Below are positions 1,407 through 24,862 of a stretch of DNA of 32,000 bases, piece after piece. The notes below the pieces were generated by a model that was given only the letters and a program-made list of their open reading frames with translations, had not been told where the DNA came from and did not search any database. This stretch comes from Alphaproteobacteria bacterium (GTDB lineage Bacteria > Pseudomonadota > Alphaproteobacteria > Rs-D84): NCBI GenBank assembly GCA_017475605.1, contig JAFVFD010000004.1, forward strand, positions 90,001 through 122,000. The letters run 5' to 3'. Position 1 is the stretch's first letter, and each line of letters begins with the position of its first letter. A program made the translations under genes and the position numbers.

Positions 1407-1438
1407 CGTTGCGATGCAACGAAATAAAATCCTATACT
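1407..1438 (+). promoter_or_regulatory. Inverted repeat plus candidate comEC promoter in the pyrG/comEC divergent region
   Basis: Perfect inverted repeat CGTTGC-GAT-GCAACG (1407-1421). It overlaps TTGCGA (1409-1414)-N18-TATACT (1433-1438). The -10 ends 6 nt before the ATG at 1445 and there is no SD, so a leaderless comEC transcript is possible. Confidence 0.3.
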
Positions 1439-1444
1439 GTGGTC

Positions 1445-3379
1445 ATGCAGGAATTATGGAAAAATCAGCGTGAAAATCTGTTTCTTTATGTGCCGTTTAT
1501 AATGGCGGCTGGGGCTGCGCTTTATTTCACAATGGCGACCGAGCCAAATATTCCATATTGTTGGCTGGTGGCGGCGGTAACATTTGTCGCGGCAATCTTG
1601 ATTCGCATACCTGTTATTCGCGCAATACTGCTATTTATCTTTGGTTTTACATTCGCGAACACATATACAAACATTCTTGACACACCAACCATTACGCGTG
1701 ATTTACAAGATGTAAATGTTCATGGTCGCGTTGAACAAATAGATTATACGACCAATCGGGCGCGAATCTTTATTCGTGTGCCGGCACGCGAATTAAAAAT
1801 AAAGTCAGACGATGACACAATAATTCGGGTTTCTATTTCTGCGGACCAATTGCCGAATATAAACGATGAAATTACAACAAGTGCAACATTGTTCCAACCA
1901 AACACACCCGATATCTGGGGCGGTTTTGATTTTGCGCGCTGGGCATATTTTAATGGCATCGGCGCAACTGGATTCATAGACGATTTCCAAATAACGCATC
2001 ATGCGACCATTGGCACCACCAACAACATACGCGATTGGTTACATACCAGGGCTGAATCTAAACTGGTCGATGGGCTGGTATTGGGTTATAAAAACAGTTT
2101 GCCCGCCGATGAACGCAACACATGGGTTGCAGCCGGTGTTGGCCACATTTGGTCAATAAGTGGTTTTCATATGACCTTGGTTGTGGGGTGGCTGTTTGCG
2201 ATATTTTATTTTCTGTTCCGGTGTATTCCATTTATTGTGCGGCGCATACCGGCACGCAATATGGCATTTATTTTCGCATGGATTGGTGTGATGATGTACC
2301 TTGGGCTATCGGGTATGGGTGTTGCAACAACACGCGCATTTTTAATGACAACATTGTTACTTGCGGCGGCTATTATGGGCCGGTCCGCGTTTTCATTAAG
2401 AAATGTATGTATGGTGTTTTGTATAATATTTCTTGCCAATCCCTATTATATTATGACCGCCGGATTCCAATTATCATTCAGTGCTATATTTGGTCTGATT
2501 TGGTTTTGGACGATTATTAAACCGCGCGTACCACAAAACAAAATATTGCGCGCGATATATACCGCAATATTAACAGCAATTGTTGCGTCCACATTTACCG
2601 CGCCATTTGTCGCAATGCATTTTTATTCGCTGCCGCTGTACAGCATTCTGGGCAACCTGATTTTATTGCCGATATTTTCTTTTGTTATTATGCCACTTGT
2701 TATGCTTGGCACGATATGTGCCGCGGTGGGCATTCATTTTCCATTACATATCGCAGATATAATTTATAATTGGACACTTGGTATTGCGAACCAGATTTCT
2801 TTGCTGCCATTCGCAACGGTTACAACGGGTGCCGTTTCTAATACCGCGATATGCTTTTTCATTGTTGGCATGATGGCGATTGTATTTATAAAACCGGTTA
2901 AATTACACATTAATTATATAATCGGTGCGGCATTTATATTTATTGGAACAATAACCGCATACTTTGCACCGATGCCTATATTCTTTGCAACACCGGATCA
3001 CGAATTGGTCGGGACTGTTAAAAATGACGAAATTATATTTAATAAAATACGCGCATCAAACCACTATTTTATTTTTGACACATGGAAACAGATGACGGGA
3101 CACACCGTCGATACACCGCACATCCGCGCCACACACGAACGCGGATTATATATATTTGAAACCCAAAAATATAAAATCGCATATATGCAACGTTTTCTGC
3201 CATTATTGCGAAATCTGGTAAAATTGTGTAATGATGATTCTGTGGATTATATTGTTTCATATATGAATATTCGCGCGCCCGCATGCGAACACAAGATATT
3301 ACAAGGCGGCTTTACAATATATGATTCGGGAAAAATTATTTATCTGCCGGCGACGCATCGTTGGAATAATCGGCACTAA
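1445..3379 (+). CDS. comEC: ComEC/Rec2-family DNA internalisation channel protein without a recognisable metallo-beta-lactamase domain
   Basis: Polytopic membrane protein carrying the competence-domain signature AAGVGHIWSISGFHMTLV. The track start at 1409 is TTG; the first ATG is at 1445 (MQELWKNQ). The C-terminal ~130 aa shows no HxHxDH motif. Confidence 0.8.
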   Translation: MQELWKNQRENLFLYVPFIMAAGAALYFTMATEPNIPYCWLVAAVTFVAAILIRIPVIRAILLFIFGFTFANTYTNILDTPTITRDLQDVNVHGRVEQIDYTTNRARIFIRVPARELKIKSDDDTIIRVSISADQLPNINDEITTSATLFQPNTPDIWGGFDFARWAYFNGIGATGFIDDFQITHHATIGTTNNIRDWLHTRAESKLVDGLVLGYKNSLPADERNTWVAAGVGHIWSISGFHMTLVVGWLFAIFYFLFRCIPFIVRRIPARNMAFIFAWIGVMMYLGLSGMGVATTRAFLMTTLLLAAAIMGRSAFSLRNVCMVFCIIFLANPYYIMTAGFQLSFSAIFGLIWFWTIIKPRVPQNKILRAIYTAILTAIVASTFTAPFVAMHFYSLPLYSILGNLILLPIFSFVIMPLVMLGTICAAVGIHFPLHIADIIYNWTLGIANQISLLPFATVTTGAVSNTAICFFIVGMMAIVFIKPVKLHINYIIGAAFIFIGTITAYFAPMPIFFATPDHELVGTVKNDEIIFNKIRASNHYFIFDTWKQMTGHTVDTPHIRATHERGLYIFETQKYKIAYMQRFLPLLRNLVKLCNDDSVDYIVSYMNIRAPACEHKILQGGFTIYDSGKIIYLPATHRWNNRH

Positions 3380-17691: not shown

Positions 17692-17719
17692 TTGACAAAT
17701 CAAGAGTTTGTAGTATAAT
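17692..17719 (+). promoter_or_regulatory. Consensus sigma70-type promoter upstream of the 41-codon ORF and rpmH
   Basis: Both hexamers are perfect: TTGACA (17692-17697)-N16-TATAAT (17714-17719). Confidence 0.55.
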
Positions 17720-17748
17720 AAACCGCAGAAATACGGGAAAAACGCAAA

Positions 17749-17874
17749 ATGAACACATCACCAAAAATATTTTTACCCCTTTGGCCAATTTTCGGGCAAT
17801 TTCTTGCCGCGATTTTTGTGTATTATTTGACATTAGAGGGGCTAAAAAAATTAGGTTTAATAAAATCTAAATAA
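17749..17874 (+). CDS. Speculative 41-aa hydrophobic peptide (single TM helix plus basic tail)
   Basis: ATG..TAA ORF below the track cutoff: MNTSPKIFLPLWPIFGQFLAAIFVYYLTLEGLKKLGLIKSK. It begins about 23 nt after the predicted start of the consensus promoter. It has only a weak SD (GGGAAA). Confidence 0.3.
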   Translation: MNTSPKIFLPLWPIFGQFLAAIFVYYLTLEGLKKLGLIKSK

Positions 17875-17879
17875 AAAGG

Positions 17880-17908
17880 TTGCGTTTTATAAAAACCTGT
17901 GATTAAAT
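17880..17908 (+). promoter_or_regulatory. Candidate proximal rpmH promoter (extended -10)
   Basis: TTGCGT (17880-17885)-N17 ending in TGa-TTAAAT (17903-17908), 22 nt upstream of the rpmH ATG. Confidence 0.35.
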
Positions 17909-17930
17909 AGGTGCGCAAAAGGATTTAGTT

Positions 17931-18083
17931 ATGGCAACAAAAAGAACATATCAACCGTCAAAAACCCGTCGTGTAAAAACACATGGGTTCCGCGAAAAAA
18001 TGGCAACAAAAAGTGGTCGCGATGTTTTGAATCGTCGTCGGGCGAAGGGTCGCGCACGCATCGCGGTATCTGCGATTAACTAA
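17931..18083 (+). CDS. rpmH: 50S ribosomal protein L34
   Basis: Below the track cutoff. [50 protein letters not shown] matches the L34 consensus (KRT.QPS...R..HGFR.RM.T..GR.VL..RR.KGR..L). SD AAGGA lies 8 nt upstream. Confidence 0.93.
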
Positions 18084-18104
18084 TATATCGCAACGGCAAT
18101 TAAT

Positions 18105-18131
18105 AAAAAATCCGGCCATCGCCGGTTTTTT
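18105..18131 (+). terminator. Rho-independent terminator after rpmH
   Basis: A-run, stem CCGGC/GCCGG with loop CATC (18112-18125), then TTTTTT. Confidence 0.65.
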
Positions 18132-18145
18132 ATTTTACAAAAACA

Positions 18146-18175
18146 CAAACAAAAACCGGGGCGATTGCCCCGGTT
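18146..18175 (-). terminator. Rho-independent terminator after the thioesterase gene
   Basis: Stem CCGGGGC/GCCCCGG with a 4-nt loop (18156-18173), followed on the minus strand by TTTTTGTTTG. It starts 3 nt after the TAG at 18177-18179. Confidence 0.7.
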
Positions 18176-18176
18176 C

Positions 18177-18908
18177 CTATTCCCGATTTGCCCAACGACA
18201 AACAACCACCGCATGTTCGGCGGCATCGGTATAAATCTTGTGATACGATGTATCGCCGTCGATTTTAACATCAACATGAACTTCGGGTACCTCGGGGTTA
18301 ATTTCTTTTTTATAGTTTAATTCGATACCACAGAGTTTATGTTCGTTGCGATATGTATATCCAACACTTTCCGTTGCCCACACCGCATAGACCGCATTGT
18401 TAATATGCTGATTCACATCAATATCATCAAAACGGCATTTCATAATATGTGTTTTGTCTGCATCAAATGTTGGGAACTTGTCAAAAGTCCGATCCCACGC
18501 ACGCACCCCCAATAAAGATTCGGTTGGTAATTTCCCATCCAACGAAATCGGACGGCGGCGTTCCATATCAATCAACACCCATTGTGATGTCGCGCGAACC
18601 ATCAAACGACCATCGGACCCGCGCACTTCGAAATCACGCGCGGTGCGTAATGTGTCGGCAATTGACGGCCATGTGATAAATTGTAAATCTTCGTTTTCGT
18701 GTGGCAATTCGATTATATCAACCAAATAGTGTGTAACAACCCATGCCAAATTGTTAGCCAACAAAAATGTACGACCAACACCGATTTTTTCCGCGTGCGT
18801 GTCCGCCATTGATTGTAATTCATTCATTAAAATCAGCGGGCGCACATTACCGTATCTATCGCATTGATAGGCCTGTAACTTTCGTATTTCGGTGTATTTT
18901 TCTGCCAT
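18177..18908 (-). CDS. Acyl-ACP thioesterase family protein (FatA/FatB-like double hotdog)
   Basis: YQCDRYGNVRPLILMNELQSMADTHAEKIGVG...LAWVVTHYLVDI...DIDVNQHINNAVYAVWATE. The ATG overlaps the valS stop as TAATG (18906-18910). Confidence 0.85.
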   Translation of the reverse strand: MAEKYTEIRKLQAYQCDRYGNVRPLILMNELQSMADTHAEKIGVGRTFLLANNLAWVVTHYLVDIIELPHENEDLQFITWPSIADTLRTARDFEVRGSDGRLMVRATSQWVLIDMERRRPISLDGKLPTESLLGVRAWDRTFDKFPTFDADKTHIMKCRFDDIDVNQHINNAVYAVWATESVGYTYRNEHKLCGIELNYKKEINPEVPEVHVDVKIDGDTSYHKIYTDAAEHAVVVCRWANRE

Positions 18909-21313
18909 TATTTCCCCTCGCTATTTTCGGCAACAACAAAATCAACTGTATCACCCAACACTATTTCATTTGCGCGTGCGGCGGACTTAATCACCCCATG
19001 CAAGGCGGACGGTGTATTTGATGGAATTGTAAGTGTTTCCAATTTTGCGCCGTTGCCAACCTTGCGTTCCGTACGCAAACCACGCACCGTTTTTAATATA
19101 TCCAGCGCAATCTGCATTTCTGATACATCCGTTTCACGCGCGGCATCCACAACTGGATATGCTGTCCTGTGTAATGTTTCGCCACCCTCGATATCCTTAT
19201 AAATCTTTTGCCATAATTCTTCGGTTAAAAATGGTATAAATGGCGCATACATGCCGATAATGGCACGCAAAACTTCCCACAAAGTCCATTGGGCAGAAAG
19301 TTTTGATTCCGCAGAATATTTTTCAGGGCTCCAGAAACGATCCTTGATGAATTCCAGGTATTGATCACAGAACACTTCATAAAAGAATGTATCAATTGCC
19401 GCACGCGAATTTTGGTTATCGTATTTGTCCAAATATTTACGCACATCGGCGATTGTCTTGTTTAATTCTGACAATACCCACCTGTCTTCGATAAAGCGGT
19501 TTTCAATTTCAACCTTTTGTGCCGACTTTGGTTCAAACCCTTCCAGGTTCATTAATACATAACGCGCCGCATTCCAAATTTTTGTTAACAATTTAGAACC
19601 GCGTTTAACCTCGTCATCACTGTATCGCAGGTCTGTTCCGATTGGTGCCGTTGCCACCCAATAACGCAACGCATCGGCCCCAAACTTGTCCACAGTTGTC
19701 AATGGGTCGGTACCATTACCTTTGGTCTTGGACATCTTTTGCCCCTTGGCATCACGCACAAGTCCATGGAAATTAACTGTTTTGAACGGAACATCGCCCA
19801 TAACATAAATGCCCATCATAATCATACGCGCAACCCAGAAGAATATAATATCGGCCGCGGTATATAACAAATCGGTTGGATAATATTTCTTTAATTCATC
19901 TGTATCATCCGGCCAACCCAATGTTGAAAATGGCCACAGCCCAGATGAAAACCATGTATCCAGCACATCAGGGTCGCGAGTAAGTTGTTTACCACCCGAT
20001 TGTTTGATTGCATCTTCTTCGGTTTCGGCGACATATACATTACCATCCGCGTCATACCATGCCGGTATATGATGCCCCCACCACAATTGACGCGATATTG
20101 CCCATGGACGAATTTCGCGCATCCATGCCATAAACAGATTATAACGGTGTTCCGGCATAAACTTTATTTTGCCCTCTTCCACAGCCTTTATCGCAGGCAC
20201 CGCCAATTTTGGTGCATCAACAAACCACTGGTCAGAAAGCCATGGTTCCACGACCACGCCACCGCGTTCGGAATATGGTGTTGGAATAACTTTGTCTTCA
20301 ACTTTGACTAACAATCCCGCGGCCGCTATATCTTCCATAACCGCCTTGCGCGCATCATAACGGTCCATGCCCCAATACTTTTCAGGCACCGGCGCGGCAC
20401 TTATCATTTTTGCGGTTGGGGTTAAAATACAAACTGGTGTTAAATTATGGCGCAGACCAACCTCGTAATCGTCAAAGTCATGCGCAGGTGTAATTTTCAC
20501 CGCGCCAGTCCCCTTTTCTGGGTCGGCGTGTTCATCTGCGATAACCGGTATTTCAATGTTGGTAAGCGGAATAATCGCACGTTTACCAATAAGGTGTTTT
20601 AACTTTTCGTTTTCAGGATGCACCGCAATTGCCTGGTCGCCAAAAAGTGTTTCTGGACGCGTTGTTGCGATTTCAATAAAGCCCCCGTCAACCAATGGAT
20701 AGTTAAAATAATAAAACTTTCCGTTTTCTTCGCGTGTATCTATTTCCAAATCAGAAACCGTTGTTTGCTGTTTTGGGCACCAATTCACCATGCGTTTAGC
20801 GCGGTAAATTAATCCTTCGTTATACATTTTCACAAACAGTTTTGTAACGGCGCGCGACAACCCATCGTCCATGGTAAATCTTTCACGATGCCAAACCGGT
20901 GTAACGCCCAAAATATGTAACTGATTTATAATCTGACCGCCCTTGTCATTTTTCCATTTCCACGCACAGTCCAGTTTTTCTGCGACAGACAAACTGTGCG
21001 GATTTATACCGCGCTTTGATAAATCGCGTTCCACCAACAACTGTGTTGCGATTGATGCGTGGTCGGTACCAGGTTGCCATAAAACATCAAAGCCGTTCAT
21101 ACGCTTATAACGGCAAATAATATCGGTCAAAACATTATCCAACGCATGCCCCAGATGTAAATTACCCGTAACATTTGGTGGCGGCATCATCATACAGAAT
21201 GATTTTTTCGCGGATTTTACATCGTTATCCCAGAAATTATTATTATCCCAAAACTCTTGAATTTTGGTCTCAATTTCACGCGGATTTATGTTTTTACCTA
21301 ATTCAATATTCAT
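18908..21313 (-). CDS. valS: Valine--tRNA ligase, short form (801 aa) without the C-terminal coiled-coil
   Basis: MMMPPPNVTGNLHLGHALDN (HIGH region), WQPGTDHASIATQ, and KMSKTKGN (KMSKS). The protein ends soon after the anticodon-binding region. Confidence 0.93.
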   Translation of the reverse strand: MNIELGKNINPREIETKIQEFWDNNNFWDNDVKSAKKSFCMMMPPPNVTGNLHLGHALDNVLTDIICRYKRMNGFDVLWQPGTDHASIATQLLVERDLSKRGINPHSLSVAEKLDCAWKWKNDKGGQIINQLHILGVTPVWHRERFTMDDGLSRAVTKLFVKMYNEGLIYRAKRMVNWCPKQQTTVSDLEIDTREENGKFYYFNYPLVDGGFIEIATTRPETLFGDQAIAVHPENEKLKHLIGKRAIIPLTNIEIPVIADEHADPEKGTGAVKITPAHDFDDYEVGLRHNLTPVCILTPTAKMISAAPVPEKYWGMDRYDARKAVMEDIAAAGLLVKVEDKVIPTPYSERGGVVVEPWLSDQWFVDAPKLAVPAIKAVEEGKIKFMPEHRYNLFMAWMREIRPWAISRQLWWGHHIPAWYDADGNVYVAETEEDAIKQSGGKQLTRDPDVLDTWFSSGLWPFSTLGWPDDTDELKKYYPTDLLYTAADIIFFWVARMIMMGIYVMGDVPFKTVNFHGLVRDAKGQKMSKTKGNGTDPLTTVDKFGADALRYWVATAPIGTDLRYSDDEVKRGSKLLTKIWNAARYVLMNLEGFEPKSAQKVEIENRFIEDRWVLSELNKTIADVRKYLDKYDNQNSRAAIDTFFYEVFCDQYLEFIKDRFWSPEKYSAESKLSAQWTLWEVLRAIIGMYAPFIPFLTEELWQKIYKDIEGGETLHRTAYPVVDAARETDVSEMQIALDILKTVRGLRTERKVGNGAKLETLTIPSNTPSALHGVIKSAARANEIVLGDTVDFVVAENSEGK

Positions 21314-21343: not shown

Positions 21344-21371
21344 ATTCTAGCAAATAAAATTGAAAATTCAA
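21344..21371 (-). promoter_or_regulatory. Candidate valS promoter
   Basis: Minus strand reads TTGAAT (21371-21366)-N16-TAGAAT (21349-21344). It is arranged back-to-back with the cassette promoter. Confidence 0.4.
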
Positions 21372-21398: not shown

Positions 21399-21426
21399 TT
21401 GACAAAGCCCTATTATGTGCGATAAT
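21399..21426 (+). promoter_or_regulatory. Candidate promoter of the three-gene ORFan cassette (extended -10)
   Basis: TTGACA (21399-21404)-N16 ending in TGc-GATAAT (21421-21426). Only 8 nt separate the -10 from the ATG at 21435 and there is no SD, so the first gene may be leaderless or nearly so. Confidence 0.5.
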
Positions 21427-21434
21427 ACCCTAAA

Positions 21435-21851
21435 ATGATTCAGGATACTATAACCACTTTGAAAGATATTGCAAAAGAGCAAACCGTATCCGTTGAGTAT
21501 TACCAAAACGGAAAATGCTATCGTATTCCGATGGCGGCATTTTTCTTGGATATATCATATGACCCATTTGATGACGAAGACGAAGATATGTCGTTGTACA
21601 TAAATTGCGACTATATTATGGTTCTTGGTACACCATACATGCGATTTTCAGTATCAGATATTGACCACAAATTGATTATCGCACCAATAATTGTACCGTT
21701 CGACAAAAAGAAGCAAAACCGGGTTCATCGCGAAATACTATCTTTGGTAAATATTTGTTCTAAACGAATTATAGCCCAGGAAATATCCCGGAACAAATAT
21801 GCCGTAGCAAGCGCAATAAACAGCATCGTTATGAATCAGGAGTACAGTTAA
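21435..21851 (+). CDS. Hypothetical protein P1 (138 aa, acidic), paralog of P3
   Basis: Uninterrupted ORF directly behind a strong promoter. It shares an N-terminal motif (TLKDIAKEQTVSVEYY..YRIP) and a C-terminal motif (ILSLVNICSKRIIAQE) with P3. It has the acidic insert DPFDDEDEDM. I recognise no known domain. Confidence 0.6.
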   Translation: MIQDTITTLKDIAKEQTVSVEYYQNGKCYRIPMAAFFLDISYDPFDDEDEDMSLYINCDYIMVLGTPYMRFSVSDIDHKLIIAPIIVPFDKKKQNRVHREILSLVNICSKRIIAQEISRNKYAVASAINSIVMNQEYS

Positions 21852-21867
21852 AAAAAAGGAGCATAAA

Positions 21868-22275
21868 ATGCGTCAAATCGTGTATAAAAACATTTTAAAA
21901 CTTATTGAAGAAAATGAACCCATCGTGGAAGCAACTAAAACAGGAACAAAATATACCTTATATGGTCGTCGTGGCGAAGTAATTTTAAGTACATATCACA
22001 ACAATCGCAAAATTGAATTATTTATCGGTGGTAGATTATTTGCATCTGCGGCGGCTGAAAGTTTTGATGGCACCGCAACCCCACATGCCAATCAATTATA
22101 CAACATAGAACGCAAATTACGTGGCGCAACACCAAAATGGCTTAGCAAAGACATCCATGCCGCAAAAAGCAACAAGGGCGCAACACCATCGCAGACGGCA
22201 ATTTTACAAAACGCATGGTGGAAATCACGCGTAATGAAACAGGCAATGTGTAACGCATTAGGCAATCAAAAATAA
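21868..22275 (+). CDS. Hypothetical protein P2 (135 aa, basic), N-terminally related to P1/P3
   Basis: Strong SD AGGAG (21857-21861) 6 nt before the ATG. The N-terminus NILKLIEENEPIVEATKTGTKYTLY parallels P1 and P3. It has an internal GATPKW / GATPSQ duplication. I recognise no known domain. Confidence 0.6.
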   Translation: MRQIVYKNILKLIEENEPIVEATKTGTKYTLYGRRGEVILSTYHNNRKIELFIGGRLFASAAAESFDGTATPHANQLYNIERKLRGATPKWLSKDIHAAKSNKGATPSQTAILQNAWWKSRVMKQAMCNALGNQK

Positions 22276-22287
22276 TCGCGACTTGTT

Positions 22288-22797
22288 ATGAAAAAATATC
22301 TAGAAACTTATTTAAGAAAAGTTATTCGTCAAGAATATGTTTCTGTGCATCACGATTATGATTCAGCAGAAACAACGTACATCATTCCATACAATGCATC
22401 GCTGGCATCACCAAAAATAAAATTATTGTTGTTGCAAAGCGCAGGTATCATAGAAGACGATGAAACTATTGACGATTACACCACATCAGAAATAGAAGAA
22501 ACATCAAAAAATCTTATCGATATTACGACACCAGAATTCGAAATATCTACATCACACTATATAAATAATCGTGGTGTATTGATGACACATTATATATTAA
22601 ATTTTGATGGGGATATATTGTTCCAAAAATCTTATCCATCAAATAAAATAAGCACGAAAAACCAAATGTTGCGATTGATAAAATTATGTTCAAATAAAAT
22701 CATTGATCAGGAACGTGCCGCACAAAAATTCAAAATGGAAAAAATGCTTATATCAACAAATATGTTTAATCTACGTGTGACACGCGACAAAAGGTAA
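22288..22797 (+). CDS. Hypothetical protein P3 (169 aa, acidic), paralog of P1
   Basis: YLRKVIRQEYVSVHHDY..TTYIIP and MLRLIKLCSNKIIDQE match P1. It has the acidic insert IIEDDETIDDYTTSEIEETS. It is very AT-rich with many ATA/AAA/TTA codons. Its 3' end overlaps the comF 3' end by 32 nt. No SD is visible. Confidence 0.55.
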   Translation: MKKYLETYLRKVIRQEYVSVHHDYDSAETTYIIPYNASLASPKIKLLLLQSAGIIEDDETIDDYTTSEIEETSKNLIDITTPEFEISTSHYINNRGVLMTHYILNFDGDILFQKSYPSNKISTKNQMLRLIKLCSNKIIDQERAAQKFKMEKMLISTNMFNLRVTRDKR

Positions 22798-23497
22798 CAC
22801 CGTAAACCGCCGCAGCACCTGCGGCGGTTAAAACTTTATACAGTTCATTAAATGTCGCACCAGTTGTCATAACATCATCAACCAGCAATATTTTCTTGCC
22901 ACGAATTTTATCTGGGTTGCGTACAGAAAACACATTATGAATATTGCGTGCGCGTTCCGCAGATGTTTTATGCCCCATATTTTCACGATAAACACGCGCA
23001 ACCGTATCTAAATCTAGTTTTACACCATACGCATGCGCAATTGGTCGCGCCAATAATGTCGCCTGATTATATCCGCGTTGGAACAAACGCCGGTTTGCCA
23101 ACGGCACAGGCATAACAATATCGGGTGTAATATCAACATCGCGCAATGCCCATATCATTGCGCGCGACATAAAACGCGCATATTGTGTACGGCCACCATG
23201 TTTATATGGTAACATCGCAGCGCGGGATGCATCATCATATACACATGCCGAACGAATTATATCCAATTCTGATTTTCCCGCCGCACATGTCGGGCACAGC
23301 ATATTCGGCGACAAATCAAAACTGGATGCGAATGGAAAACCACAACGCGCACATTTTGCACCATCAATCCAATTAAAAGATGTCCAACAATCGCCACATA
23401 ATTCGCCATGCGTTTCCACACGCGCATTACACAGCGGACACGATGGTGGGAATATAAAATCGATTAAACGCGATAAATACTTTCGCACAAATTCCAT
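22766..23497 (-). CDS. comF: ComF-family protein (ComFC-like phosphoribosyltransferase-fold)
   Basis: N-terminal zinc-finger cysteines FPPSCPLCNA...CGDCW...CARCGFPF...CPTC, and the PRTase motif KILLVDDVMTTGAT. I chose the ATG at 23497; the track start at 23512 is TTG. Confidence 0.85.
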   Translation of the reverse strand: MEFVRKYLSRLIDFIFPPSCPLCNARVETHGELCGDCWTSFNWIDGAKCARCGFPFASSFDLSPNMLCPTCAAGKSELDIIRSACVYDDASRAAMLPYKHGGRTQYARFMSRAMIWALRDVDITPDIVMPVPLANRRLFQRGYNQATLLARPIAHAYGVKLDLDTVARVYRENMGHKTSAERARNIHNVFSVRNPDKIRGKKILLVDDVMTTGATFNELYKVLTAAGAAAVYGVTFCRVSHVD

Positions 23498-23505
23498 TAC
23501 GAAAA

Positions 23506-24789
23506 TTACCAAGACATACTTTTATATGTTTTCTTGTTAACACTGTCGCCGAACATATTGCGTTGCTGCTGGGTCATGGTTTCATATTGTTCATTGGAAA
23601 TAATACGCAACACAAAATCTTCGTCCGCGCGCGATGTTAGAACCGGCAACACACGTTGTTCCGCAACCCCTGTATCACGCAAAACCTGTTCTATGATGGC
23701 AAGGCGACGCGCCGCCAATTTGCGACCATCGGCACTTGTTGTAACAGATTCTGGAATACCGACCTGGATTGCACGTTTTGGGTTACTTACCACAATGGAC
23801 GCATATTCGGTCAACAATGTATAGTTATCGCGCGACAACGCGGAATCTTCGTTACGAAAACGAATTTTGATTTCCAGTGGGCGAATACCACCAGTTTCAG
23901 ACAAATCACGAACAGCGGTGAAACCCTCAATATTAGAAGTCATATCGCTTGCCACATCAAAACGGTCATCTATTTGGAATGTGGAAAGATGCTTGTTTTC
24001 CGACAAAAATGTTTTACGAAACGCGCGGCGCAATTCAGATGGCGACATTTTAGTCATATCATTACGCACCGCGGCAATTGTTGGTGACGTTTTCTTTTCA
24101 ACTGTACGCACAACAACATCCTGGGCATCCATTGGCACAACCAGGCGCGACAATTTCACCGGTGTACTTTCATCAGATTTTGTTTCACGCGCGACAACAT
24201 TGTTTGTTTGCGGTGTTAAAATCGGTGCAGATACTATTTGTGATGGCTGTGCGGAAACACTTTCGTCCGCGCGACGTTGTAATTCCATCAATTTTGCGAT
24301 TTGATTATCAATCTCACTCATTGAATCACGTATTTCGTCAACAGGTTCCGCATTACGCGCAACCATTGTACGTGTCGATGTGGTCGAATCTAAACTTTCT
24401 TCTGGTAAACTAAAATCAGATTCAAGTACGGAAAACTCACTCGGTCGTGGCATACGCAATGGTGCATCGGCCCGCGCCCATAAATCAGCACTTGGGCGAT
24501 GTGGAATTAACACATCGGCAACCCTTGCGATATGTTCACCATTATCAACCGATGTTGTCGCCGCACGCGGTGCAACATTACGCGTTGATGTATTTGTTTT
24601 TTGTGTTGTCGCAACACGAGTTTTTGCCACAGGTGCAACAGACACCGGCGCAGGCGTATAAACATTTTCGCCGAATGCGGCACGCGCCGAAACCCCGGCG
24701 GCCCCAACATTTACAACCGGCAAACGGACACCCCCCCATGCCGAACCAACCACAAAAATCGAGAGTATTGACGTGGTAATACGATGCAT
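23506..24789 (-). CDS. Secreted hypothetical protein: low-complexity N-terminal half, short coiled coil, C-terminal region faintly OmpA_C-like
   Basis: The start MHRITTSILSIFVVGSAWG (a signal peptide) is preceded by SD GGAAGGAAAGGAAA. The N-terminal half is rich in A/P/T/S/V. The C-terminal stretch LEIKIRFRNEDSALS...GRKLAARRLAIIEQVLRDTGVAEQRV resembles the OmpA/MotB C-terminal fold pattern but lacks the GHTD-type motif. Confidence 0.65.
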   Translation of the reverse strand: MHRITTSILSIFVVGSAWGGVRLPVVNVGAAGVSARAAFGENVYTPAPVSVAPVAKTRVATTQKTNTSTRNVAPRAATTSVDNGEHIARVADVLIPHRPSADLWARADAPLRMPRPSEFSVLESDFSLPEESLDSTTSTRTMVARNAEPVDEIRDSMSEIDNQIAKLMELQRRADESVSAQPSQIVSAPILTPQTNNVVARETKSDESTPVKLSRLVVPMDAQDVVVRTVEKKTSPTIAAVRNDMTKMSPSELRRAFRKTFLSENKHLSTFQIDDRFDVASDMTSNIEGFTAVRDLSETGGIRPLEIKIRFRNEDSALSRDNYTLLTEYASIVVSNPKRAIQVGIPESVTTSADGRKLAARRLAIIEQVLRDTGVAEQRVLPVLTSRADEDFVLRIISNEQYETMTQQQRNMFGDSVNKKTYKSMSW

Positions 24790-24862
24790 TTTCCTTTCCT
24801 TCCAATTCAATCATAGAACAAATGACGAATCGGGGGCAAGTGGAAAATGATATTATTTGCTA

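Follow-up and report, generated by a model that had tools for sequence, protein, structure and literature searches.

A fast-evolving, clade-restricted operon of small paralogous proteins between valS and comF in gut Alphaproteobacteria related to Candidatus Enterousia

We analysed a 32,000-nucleotide (nt) stretch of DNA (called the window below) from an alphaproteobacterial assembly (GCA_017475605.1, contig JAFVFD010000004.1, positions 90,001 to 122,000 of the forward strand) and describe here a three-gene operon, P1-P2-P3, that lies between valS and comF and encodes paralogous small soluble proteins. Our best overall explanation, to which we give a probability of about 0.5, is that this cassette is a vertically inherited, fast-evolving and clade-restricted operon encoding binding modules that work at a conflict-type interface. 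Comparison with related genomes shows that the family is confined to gut Alphaproteobacteria of the Candidatus Enterousia type (order Rs-D84), and that the locus has been inherited vertically at one site with tandem duplication, loss and reordering (0–3 copies) and is not a recent acquisition. P1, P2 and P3 are real genes under purifying selection, with fast protein change compared to their neighbours. By its mode of evolution the operon may, with low confidence, serve a conflict or a partner-interaction interface.

By its ValS protein, the window groups with uncultured Alphaproteobacteria of gut and rumen that are relatives of Candidatus Enterousia (order Rs-D84). Respiration and part of glycolysis are missing from the genomes of this order, which are smaller than 1 Mb, and these bacteria have been proposed to depend on a partner organism (PMC12306168). 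Intact homologues of the cassette genes were found in more than 20 related contigs, all from Candidatus Enterousia-like members of the order. An earlier note on this DNA, made from the sequence alone, had called the three genes ORFans, which does not hold strictly since there are homologues in related metagenome-assembled genomes; the family is nevertheless tiny. A search of 5.8 billion protein clusters returned a handful of full-length homologues per protein at 50–100% identity (38–100% across the P1 homologues), a profile search of 1.84 billion cluster representatives gave only 17 matches, 15 of them small proteins of 95–177 amino acids (aa), and a locus scan with a narrower family alignment added only two metagenome loci. 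The description of the genes as lineage-specific is thus supported, the genes being real and their homologues confined to one clade.

In every contig with readable context, family members lie between valS and comF, and the content of this site differs between relatives in both number and order (Table 1). The P1, P2 and P3 types occur singly and in varied orders, so the triplets whose co-occurrence had been proposed as a check are seen at only some of the loci. Inspection of the valS–comF junction in relatives, proposed at the same time, did reveal one empty site, with a gap of 87 bp (L015); however, in a neighbour-joining tree of ValS this genome groups with L095 inside the cassette-bearing clade, and the empty site therefore points to a loss. 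No flanking repeats or insertion sequences were found around the cassette, the nearest tRNA is ~7 kb away, and neither a tblastn search of phages and plasmids nor a scan of viral contigs recovered a family homologue. Overall, the usual marks of a mobile or acquired island (repeats, an integrase, insertion sequences, a tRNA target, patchy taxonomic occurrence, homologues in phages or plasmids) are absent here, and the earlier reading of the cassette as an acquired accessory module is not supported, given a site that is the same clade-wide, the lack of such marks and the probable loss in L015. In two relatives (L011 and L012) the first gene at the site encodes a basic protein (isoelectric point (pI) 9.6, 152–162 aa) that has a lysine-rich stretch and, at its C-terminus, an ‘LKKILDICKTK’ motif resembling the family helix; it matched neither family hidden Markov model (HMM) and may be a fourth, more divergent family member.

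The ratio of nonsynonymous to synonymous substitution rates (dN/dS) against the closest relative (L090) was 0.30 for P1, 0.16 for P2 and 0.13 for P3, with flanking genes at 0.06–0.17, and cassette values against L001, L004 and L089 were 0.12–0.44. Against more distant relatives, cassette dN reached 0.36–0.76 and that of the flanking genes (valS, comF, murG, the thioesterase gene and the gene of a 434-aa protein) was 0.04–0.18 in the same genome pairs. Because dN/dS is below 1 while dN is ~2–12 times that of the flanks, we conclude that the three genes are under purifying selection and that their proteins change faster than those of their neighbours. A non-coding spacer carrying spurious open reading frames (ORFs) was rejected as an explanation, since the ORFs are intact and their dN/dS is below 1 in many relatives. 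Between the window and L090 (6001-7366), P1 is 88% identical with a dS of 0.21, P3 is 99% identical with a dS of 0.02, and valS has a dS of 0.12; this mosaic hints at allele replacement or recombination inside the cassette.

The earlier note had described the three genes as mutually paralogous, and this proved right for P1 and P3 and probable, though remote, for P2. Pairwise BLASTP among the three proteins gave no signal (E 20, 4.5 and 1.1). However, comparison of the P1-family and P3-family profiles with hhalign gave an E of 7.4e-5 over 122 columns, essentially the full length, and intermediate genes connect the two by plain tblastn: one (L094:276-704) is matched by P1 at E 3e-9 and by P3 at E 1e-9, and another, in L097, by P1 at 8e-16 and by P3 at 2e-4. 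From sequence profiles, P2 is probably a remote paralogue of both. A P2-like alignment, enlarged with single genes from the valS–comF site of more distant relatives, matched the P1/P3 superfamily profile at E 3.1e-6 over 94 columns, and the HMMs of the P2-like and P1/P3 families cross-matched in both directions. Predicted structures point the same way. The AlphaFold2 (AF2) model of P1 (mean predicted local distance difference test score (pLDDT) 83.8, predicted template-modelling score 0.75) begins with an N-terminal helix, continues with a five-stranded sheet that includes an acidic loop, and closes with a C-terminal helix of 42 residues bearing an LxNxCSKRIIAQE motif. That of P2 (pLDDT 70) has the same N-terminal helix and five-stranded sheet, followed by helices carrying a conserved GATPxQTxxLQNAWWKS...MCNALGN motif, so that in both models an N-terminal helix, a two-strand hairpin and three further strands precede C-terminal helices. 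The suggestion that P2 shares the N-terminal module is therefore supported as a helix-plus-sheet module. Compared with P1, P3 carries an additional helix and an acidic insertion (residues ~38–86).

Across the superfamily only L9, Y29 and C108 (P1 numbering) are invariant; V20, I113, Q115 and E116 are near-invariant within an L-x-N-x-C-S-K-K-I-I-A-Q-E motif, and in P2 a Trp replaces the Cys and the QE pair is absent. Nothing among these residues amounts to a catalytic signature. Conservation is highest in β1–β2 and in the C-terminal helix (0.57–0.63) and lowest in β3–β5 (0.37) and the acidic loop (0.44), and the distal half of the P1 C-terminal helix shows a small-residue pattern (A123/A127, S126/S130).

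The profile and fold searches that had been suggested earlier gave nothing significant. In Pfam-A the best match was at E 0.03 and 14.6 bits, compared with family cut-offs of 24–27: the phage YunG-like family PF24591 (cut-off 27) aligned to P1 residues 6–31 and was matched by one of 24 family members, and FliH (PF02108, cut-off 24) aligned to the helical segment only (P1 residues 92–132) and was matched by five of the 24. NCBIfam gave no match for P1–P3 or for family members. The best PHROGs match (E 0.008) was to families of unknown function, none of which recurred across members. Searched against PADLOC-DB v2, P1–P3 (at E up to 10) and the 24 P1/P3-like members had no match, and one stray match at E 0.027 appeared among nine P2-like members. 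Sequence-profile searches of the PDB were without a match, Foldseek returned nothing from the PDB better than E 0.047 and a TM-score of 0.35, and BFVD likewise gave nothing significant; Atg10 and Atg3 (E2-like), Whirly/PC4, ChuX and Crl were insignificant top Foldseek matches at TM-scores of 0.2–0.3, and we read nothing into them. Because none of these collections yielded a significant match, we call this uncharacterised protein family new. Neither the family scans nor hydropathy analysis revealed a known domain or a transmembrane segment in P1–P3 (maximum Kyte-Doolittle 19-residue window 1.2), as had been noted before.

As expected from the earlier description, the ORFs have exactly the sizes and spacing reported (gaps of 16 nt between P1 and P2 and 12 nt between P2 and P3), the final 32 nt of P3 are antisense to the 3′ end of comF, with which the cassette is convergent, and from 18.2 kb to the end of the window the cassette holds the only plus-strand protein genes, all other long ORFs that could be assigned to a family (thioesterase, valS, comF, the 434-aa protein, murG, ftsW, mraY and a class A penicillin-binding protein) being on the minus strand. 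A consensus scan confirmed the near-consensus promoter with an extended -10 element in front of P1; it is the best match of the region, with 11 of 12 hexamer positions matching. Its -10 element ends 8 nt before the P1 ATG (21435), and P1 has no Shine-Dalgarno (SD) sequence, the layout of a leaderless gene (a -10 element ~6–8 nt before the ATG, no SD). Six loci share invariant TTGACAAAG, TGTG and A.AAT promoter elements, even though their P1 proteins are only 38–88% identical, and the -10 to ATG spacing of 7–8 nt without an SD recurs in nine loci in which a P1-type gene comes first; where the leading gene is P2-like or of another kind, the leaders are longer and bear SD sequences. Because promoter and layout are conserved in related loci, P1 is probably translated from a leaderless or near-leaderless mRNA, its transcription start being predicted, and this lends support to an earlier suggestion. 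The predicted valS promoter is back to back with that of the cassette, 27 bp away, and both are conserved; in an alignment of the valS–P1 intergenic region from six loci the valS promoter block is near-invariant. The conserved extended -10 promoter would drive transcription of the whole operon, P2 would be translated through the strong SD already pointed out in the earlier note, and P3, which has no SD, possibly by coupling or re-initiation. At all loci but one (L098, where it ends 2 nt short), the final gene of the cassette reaches or runs past the comF stop, so transcription of the cassette would have to enter comF antisense, running in the window into its 3′ end. A GC-rich hairpin directly after the P3 stop, within the comF coding region that encodes AAGAAA, could be the terminator of the cassette transcript; this role is uncertain because the hairpin is kept in only some relatives (in L090 and L004, not in L001, L088 or L094).

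The AT-richness and the enrichment of ATA, AAA and TTA codons that had been estimated by hand are borne out by per-gene counts. GC content is 0.369 in P1, 0.395 in P2 and 0.306 in P3, compared with 0.43–0.47 in valS, comF, murG and gyrA, and per 1000 codons the cassette has 43 ATA (flanks 14.5), 77 AAA (flanks 36) and 29 TTA (flanks 19), a 1.5- to 3-fold enrichment. The equivalent region is also low in GC in relatives, and the composition fits weakly constrained, fast-evolving genes as much as it fits a foreign origin. P1 is acidic (pI 5.1) and P2 basic (pI 10.0), as claimed before, with the P2 orthologues consistently basic (pI 9.4–10); P3, which had been taken as acidic, has an acidic insert but a neutral overall pI of 6.9. 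The duplication noted within P2 consists of two GATP motifs, of which only the second is conserved among P2 homologues. A 29-nt direct repeat with 83% identity in the 5′ regions of P2 and P3 was considered as a trace of duplication and rejected, since the reading frames differ between the two genes, which makes a chance similarity of AT-rich sequence probable.

Table 1. Features of the window and content of the valS–comF site in relatives.
Feature	Position or locus	Strand	Details
valS	18908-21313	-	flanks the cassette
valS promoter (predicted)	21344-21371	-	TTGAAT, 16-nt spacer, TG-extended TAGAAT; consensus scan
Cassette promoter	21399-21426	+	TTGACA (21399-21404), 16-nt spacer, TGcGATAAT; -10 at 21421-21426
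P1	21435-21851	+	138 aa ORF
P2 Shine-Dalgarno AGGAG	21857-21861	+	6 nt before P2 ATG; direct sequence reading
P2	21868-22275	+	135 aa ORF
P3	22288-22797	+	169 aa ORF
29-nt direct repeat	21886-21914 / 22292-22320		in P2 and P3
comF	22766-23512	-	ComF family, NCBIfam TIGR00201, E 1e-31
Hairpin, GC-rich	22805-22829	+	11-bp stem; RNA fold -21.7 kcal/mol, z -4.3
434-aa protein	23506-24810	-	downstream of comF; stop overlaps comF start by 7 nt
comEC	1409-3379	+	Pfam Competence, E 1e-49
Second variable spot, window	17700-18180		low-GC stretch (0.336)
rpmH	17931-18083		only gene of second variable spot in window
Leu_leader match, sub-threshold	18056-18134	+	just after rpmH; 22 bits, gathering threshold 50, E 0.42
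Second variable spot, relatives	L001:2877-3787; L090:2198-2527		added 109-aa ORF; L001 also DUF559 gene
Second variable spot, relative	L010:4739-6927		two signal-peptide proteins and extra P2-like member
Extra P2-like gene	L010:6463-6927		154 aa; HMM E 5e-8
First gene of site, basic protein	L011:5078-5566; L012:5152-5610	-	possible fourth family member
Site content P1-P2-P3	window, L090, L001		
Site content P1-P3-P2	L088		
Site content P1-P3	L089, L094, probably L099/L100		
Site content P1-P2	L004		
Site content P1 alone	L095/L096, L097, L098		
Site content one P2-like gene	L008, L009, L013		
Site content one P1/P3-like gene	L010		
Site content two genes	L011, L012		
Site content nothing	L015		87-bp gap

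We propose, at low certainty, that P1–P3 are non-enzymatic binding modules. The β1–β2 hairpin and the long amphipathic C-terminal helix would form the core and a surface for docking to self or to a partner, the conserved helix probably packing on the sheet and mediating the association, and the fast-changing β3–β5 sheet together with the acidic loop would set specificity. At a conflict-type interface such modules might neutralise phage proteins, foreign toxins or factors of a partner organism. We favour a conflict interface because the genes evolve fast, turn over, are dispensable and occur independently of one another. Several observations weigh against it. No toxin, secretion or defence gene adjoins the cassette and no PADLOC model matches it; dN/dS is below 1 everywhere, with synonymous sites saturated in most pairs; the link of P2 to the other two has only 11% identity and a probability of 88%; the alignments behind the AF2 models are shallow, with 13 and 5 sequences; and the family is not strictly confined to its site, since one relative (L010) has an extra P2-like copy elsewhere. 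This extra gene adjoins genes for two signal-peptide proteins. A more far-reaching version, which we consider rather unlikely, makes the valS–comF site a dedicated diversification locus for a new fold, possibly born there, whose paralogues would act as neutralisers or adaptors of variable specificity where these ultra-reduced, probably partner-dependent bacteria meet phages, competitors or their partner; the cassette would then be a new kind of small module for conflict or symbiosis that genomes below 1 Mb retain.

Other explanations were weighed against the same data. The cassette could be an orphan immunity-type array in which each paralogue neutralises a different interbacterial toxin of gut competitors, without a toxin being encoded nearby. 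Small, cytoplasmic, tandem, fast-evolving, copy-variable and individually dispensable proteins in a dense gut community would suit such a role, as would transcription that looks, from the promoter sequence, strong and constitutive. However, neither P1–P3 nor family members match an immunity or defence profile (no Imm-family match, with SUKH-type families considered), the neighbours are valS, comF, murG, ftsW and the thioesterase gene with no cognate toxin among them, genes of type VI secretion, contact-dependent inhibition or Rhs systems and marks of mobile elements are absent from the window, and the family is limited to a single clade and a single core-genome site, unlike immunity islands, which are usually exchanged horizontally; we regard this explanation as quite unlikely. 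A role as endogenous regulators or adaptors of the neighbours, in DNA uptake through ComF and ComEC or by convergent transcription into comF, is distinctly doubtful as well. The strict linkage to the valS–comF gap, the meeting of the cassette end with the comF stop in all loci but L098, the close spacing and conservation of the cassette and valS promoters and the presence of comEC in the window would all fit. Yet L015 lacks the cassette and keeps comF and valS intact, in L007 and L016, where synteny breaks, no family member was found near valS, a Pfam search at E up to 10 found neither ComFB nor any other competence family in P1–P3, and such rapid sequence change would be unusual for the partner of a conserved housekeeping machine.

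A different kind of alternative concerns origin. De novo birth from the AT-rich valS–comF spacer in an Rs-D84 ancestor, followed by duplication and with a function still marginal or emerging, would account for the lack of any sequence or fold relative outside the clade, for GC at the intergenic level, for a first gene that needs no SD and for frequent losses. The predicted folds are, however, well ordered (P1 pLDDT 84), motifs and dN/dS of 0.1–0.4 persist across lineages with saturated synonymous sites, the genes are retained in genomes below 1 Mb from which much of the metabolism is gone, and extreme divergence from an unrecognised ancestor would look identical in these data; we give such an origin a low probability. 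A reading that goes back to the earlier note makes the cassette an acquired module whose products form an obligate complex, with a basic nucleic-acid binder between two acidic decoys. In its favour are the low GC and skewed codon usage, the acidic P1 and the consistently basic P2 orthologues. This reading is now very improbable and largely refuted by the comparative data: the site is fixed clade-wide with a conserved promoter, phage, plasmid and viral homologues and flanking repeats are lacking, P3 is not acidic overall, and an obligate triad is unlikely because its components are found singly and reordered. We retain the vertically inherited operon of binding modules as our preferred explanation. 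Genes that are both kept and diversified in genomes below 1 Mb are good candidates for the biology of partner dependence or defence. The locus is a compact case, with a conserved strong promoter, a probable leaderless start, and copy number and order that vary between close relatives. Its present value is limited: it provides a new protein family and a basis for comparison, with no mechanism.

Elsewhere in the window, a second variable spot lies between gyrA/rpmH and the thioesterase gene; its content in the window and in three relatives is given in Table 1, and the two signal-peptide proteins encoded there in L010 carry an ‘IAST(Q/E)YV’ motif. An Rfam scan of 17–24 kb gave nothing except a sub-threshold Leu_leader match, which is most likely due to chance. 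The clade-specific 434-aa protein has a hydrophobic N-terminus and a weak OmpA-like match at its C-terminus (E 0.003), and it evolves faster than its neighbours (48–97% identity in relatives) in conserved synteny. ComEC is retained alongside ComF in this reduced genome, which fits a capacity for DNA uptake, as in other ultra-small bacteria.

Small competence proteins of the ComFB type are placed co-directionally in a comF operon, whereas cassette and comF are convergent. Small alpha-beta-alpha binding folds, such as profilin-like and roadblock domains and type III secretion chaperones, resemble the cassette proteins in secondary-structure order only. They differ in that P1–P3 have neither a Pfam match nor a PDB match above the Foldseek values given above and in that the window shows no evident secretion system; the likeness lies in a size of ~120–170 aa and in an antiparallel sheet framed by an N-terminal and a C-terminal helix, with some members mildly acidic. 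Leaderless genes are common in the alphaproteobacterium Caulobacter crescentus. P1 differs from these in that its transcription start is predicted and that relatives with a P2-like first gene use SD-bearing leaders; it resembles them in that, at nine related loci, no SD is present and 7–8 nt separate the end of the -10 element from the ATG. In gut Bacteroidales, the acquired interbacterial defence clusters are arrays of orphan or acquired immunity genes directed against interbacterial toxins. The cassette is set apart from them by the lack of sequence or profile similarity and of adjacent toxin, secretion or mobile-element genes, and by a family that is limited to a single clade and to a single core-genome site whose promoter is conserved. 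What the two have in common is a tandem arrangement of small, cytoplasmic, non-enzymatic and fast-diverging proteins that vary in copy number in gut bacteria.

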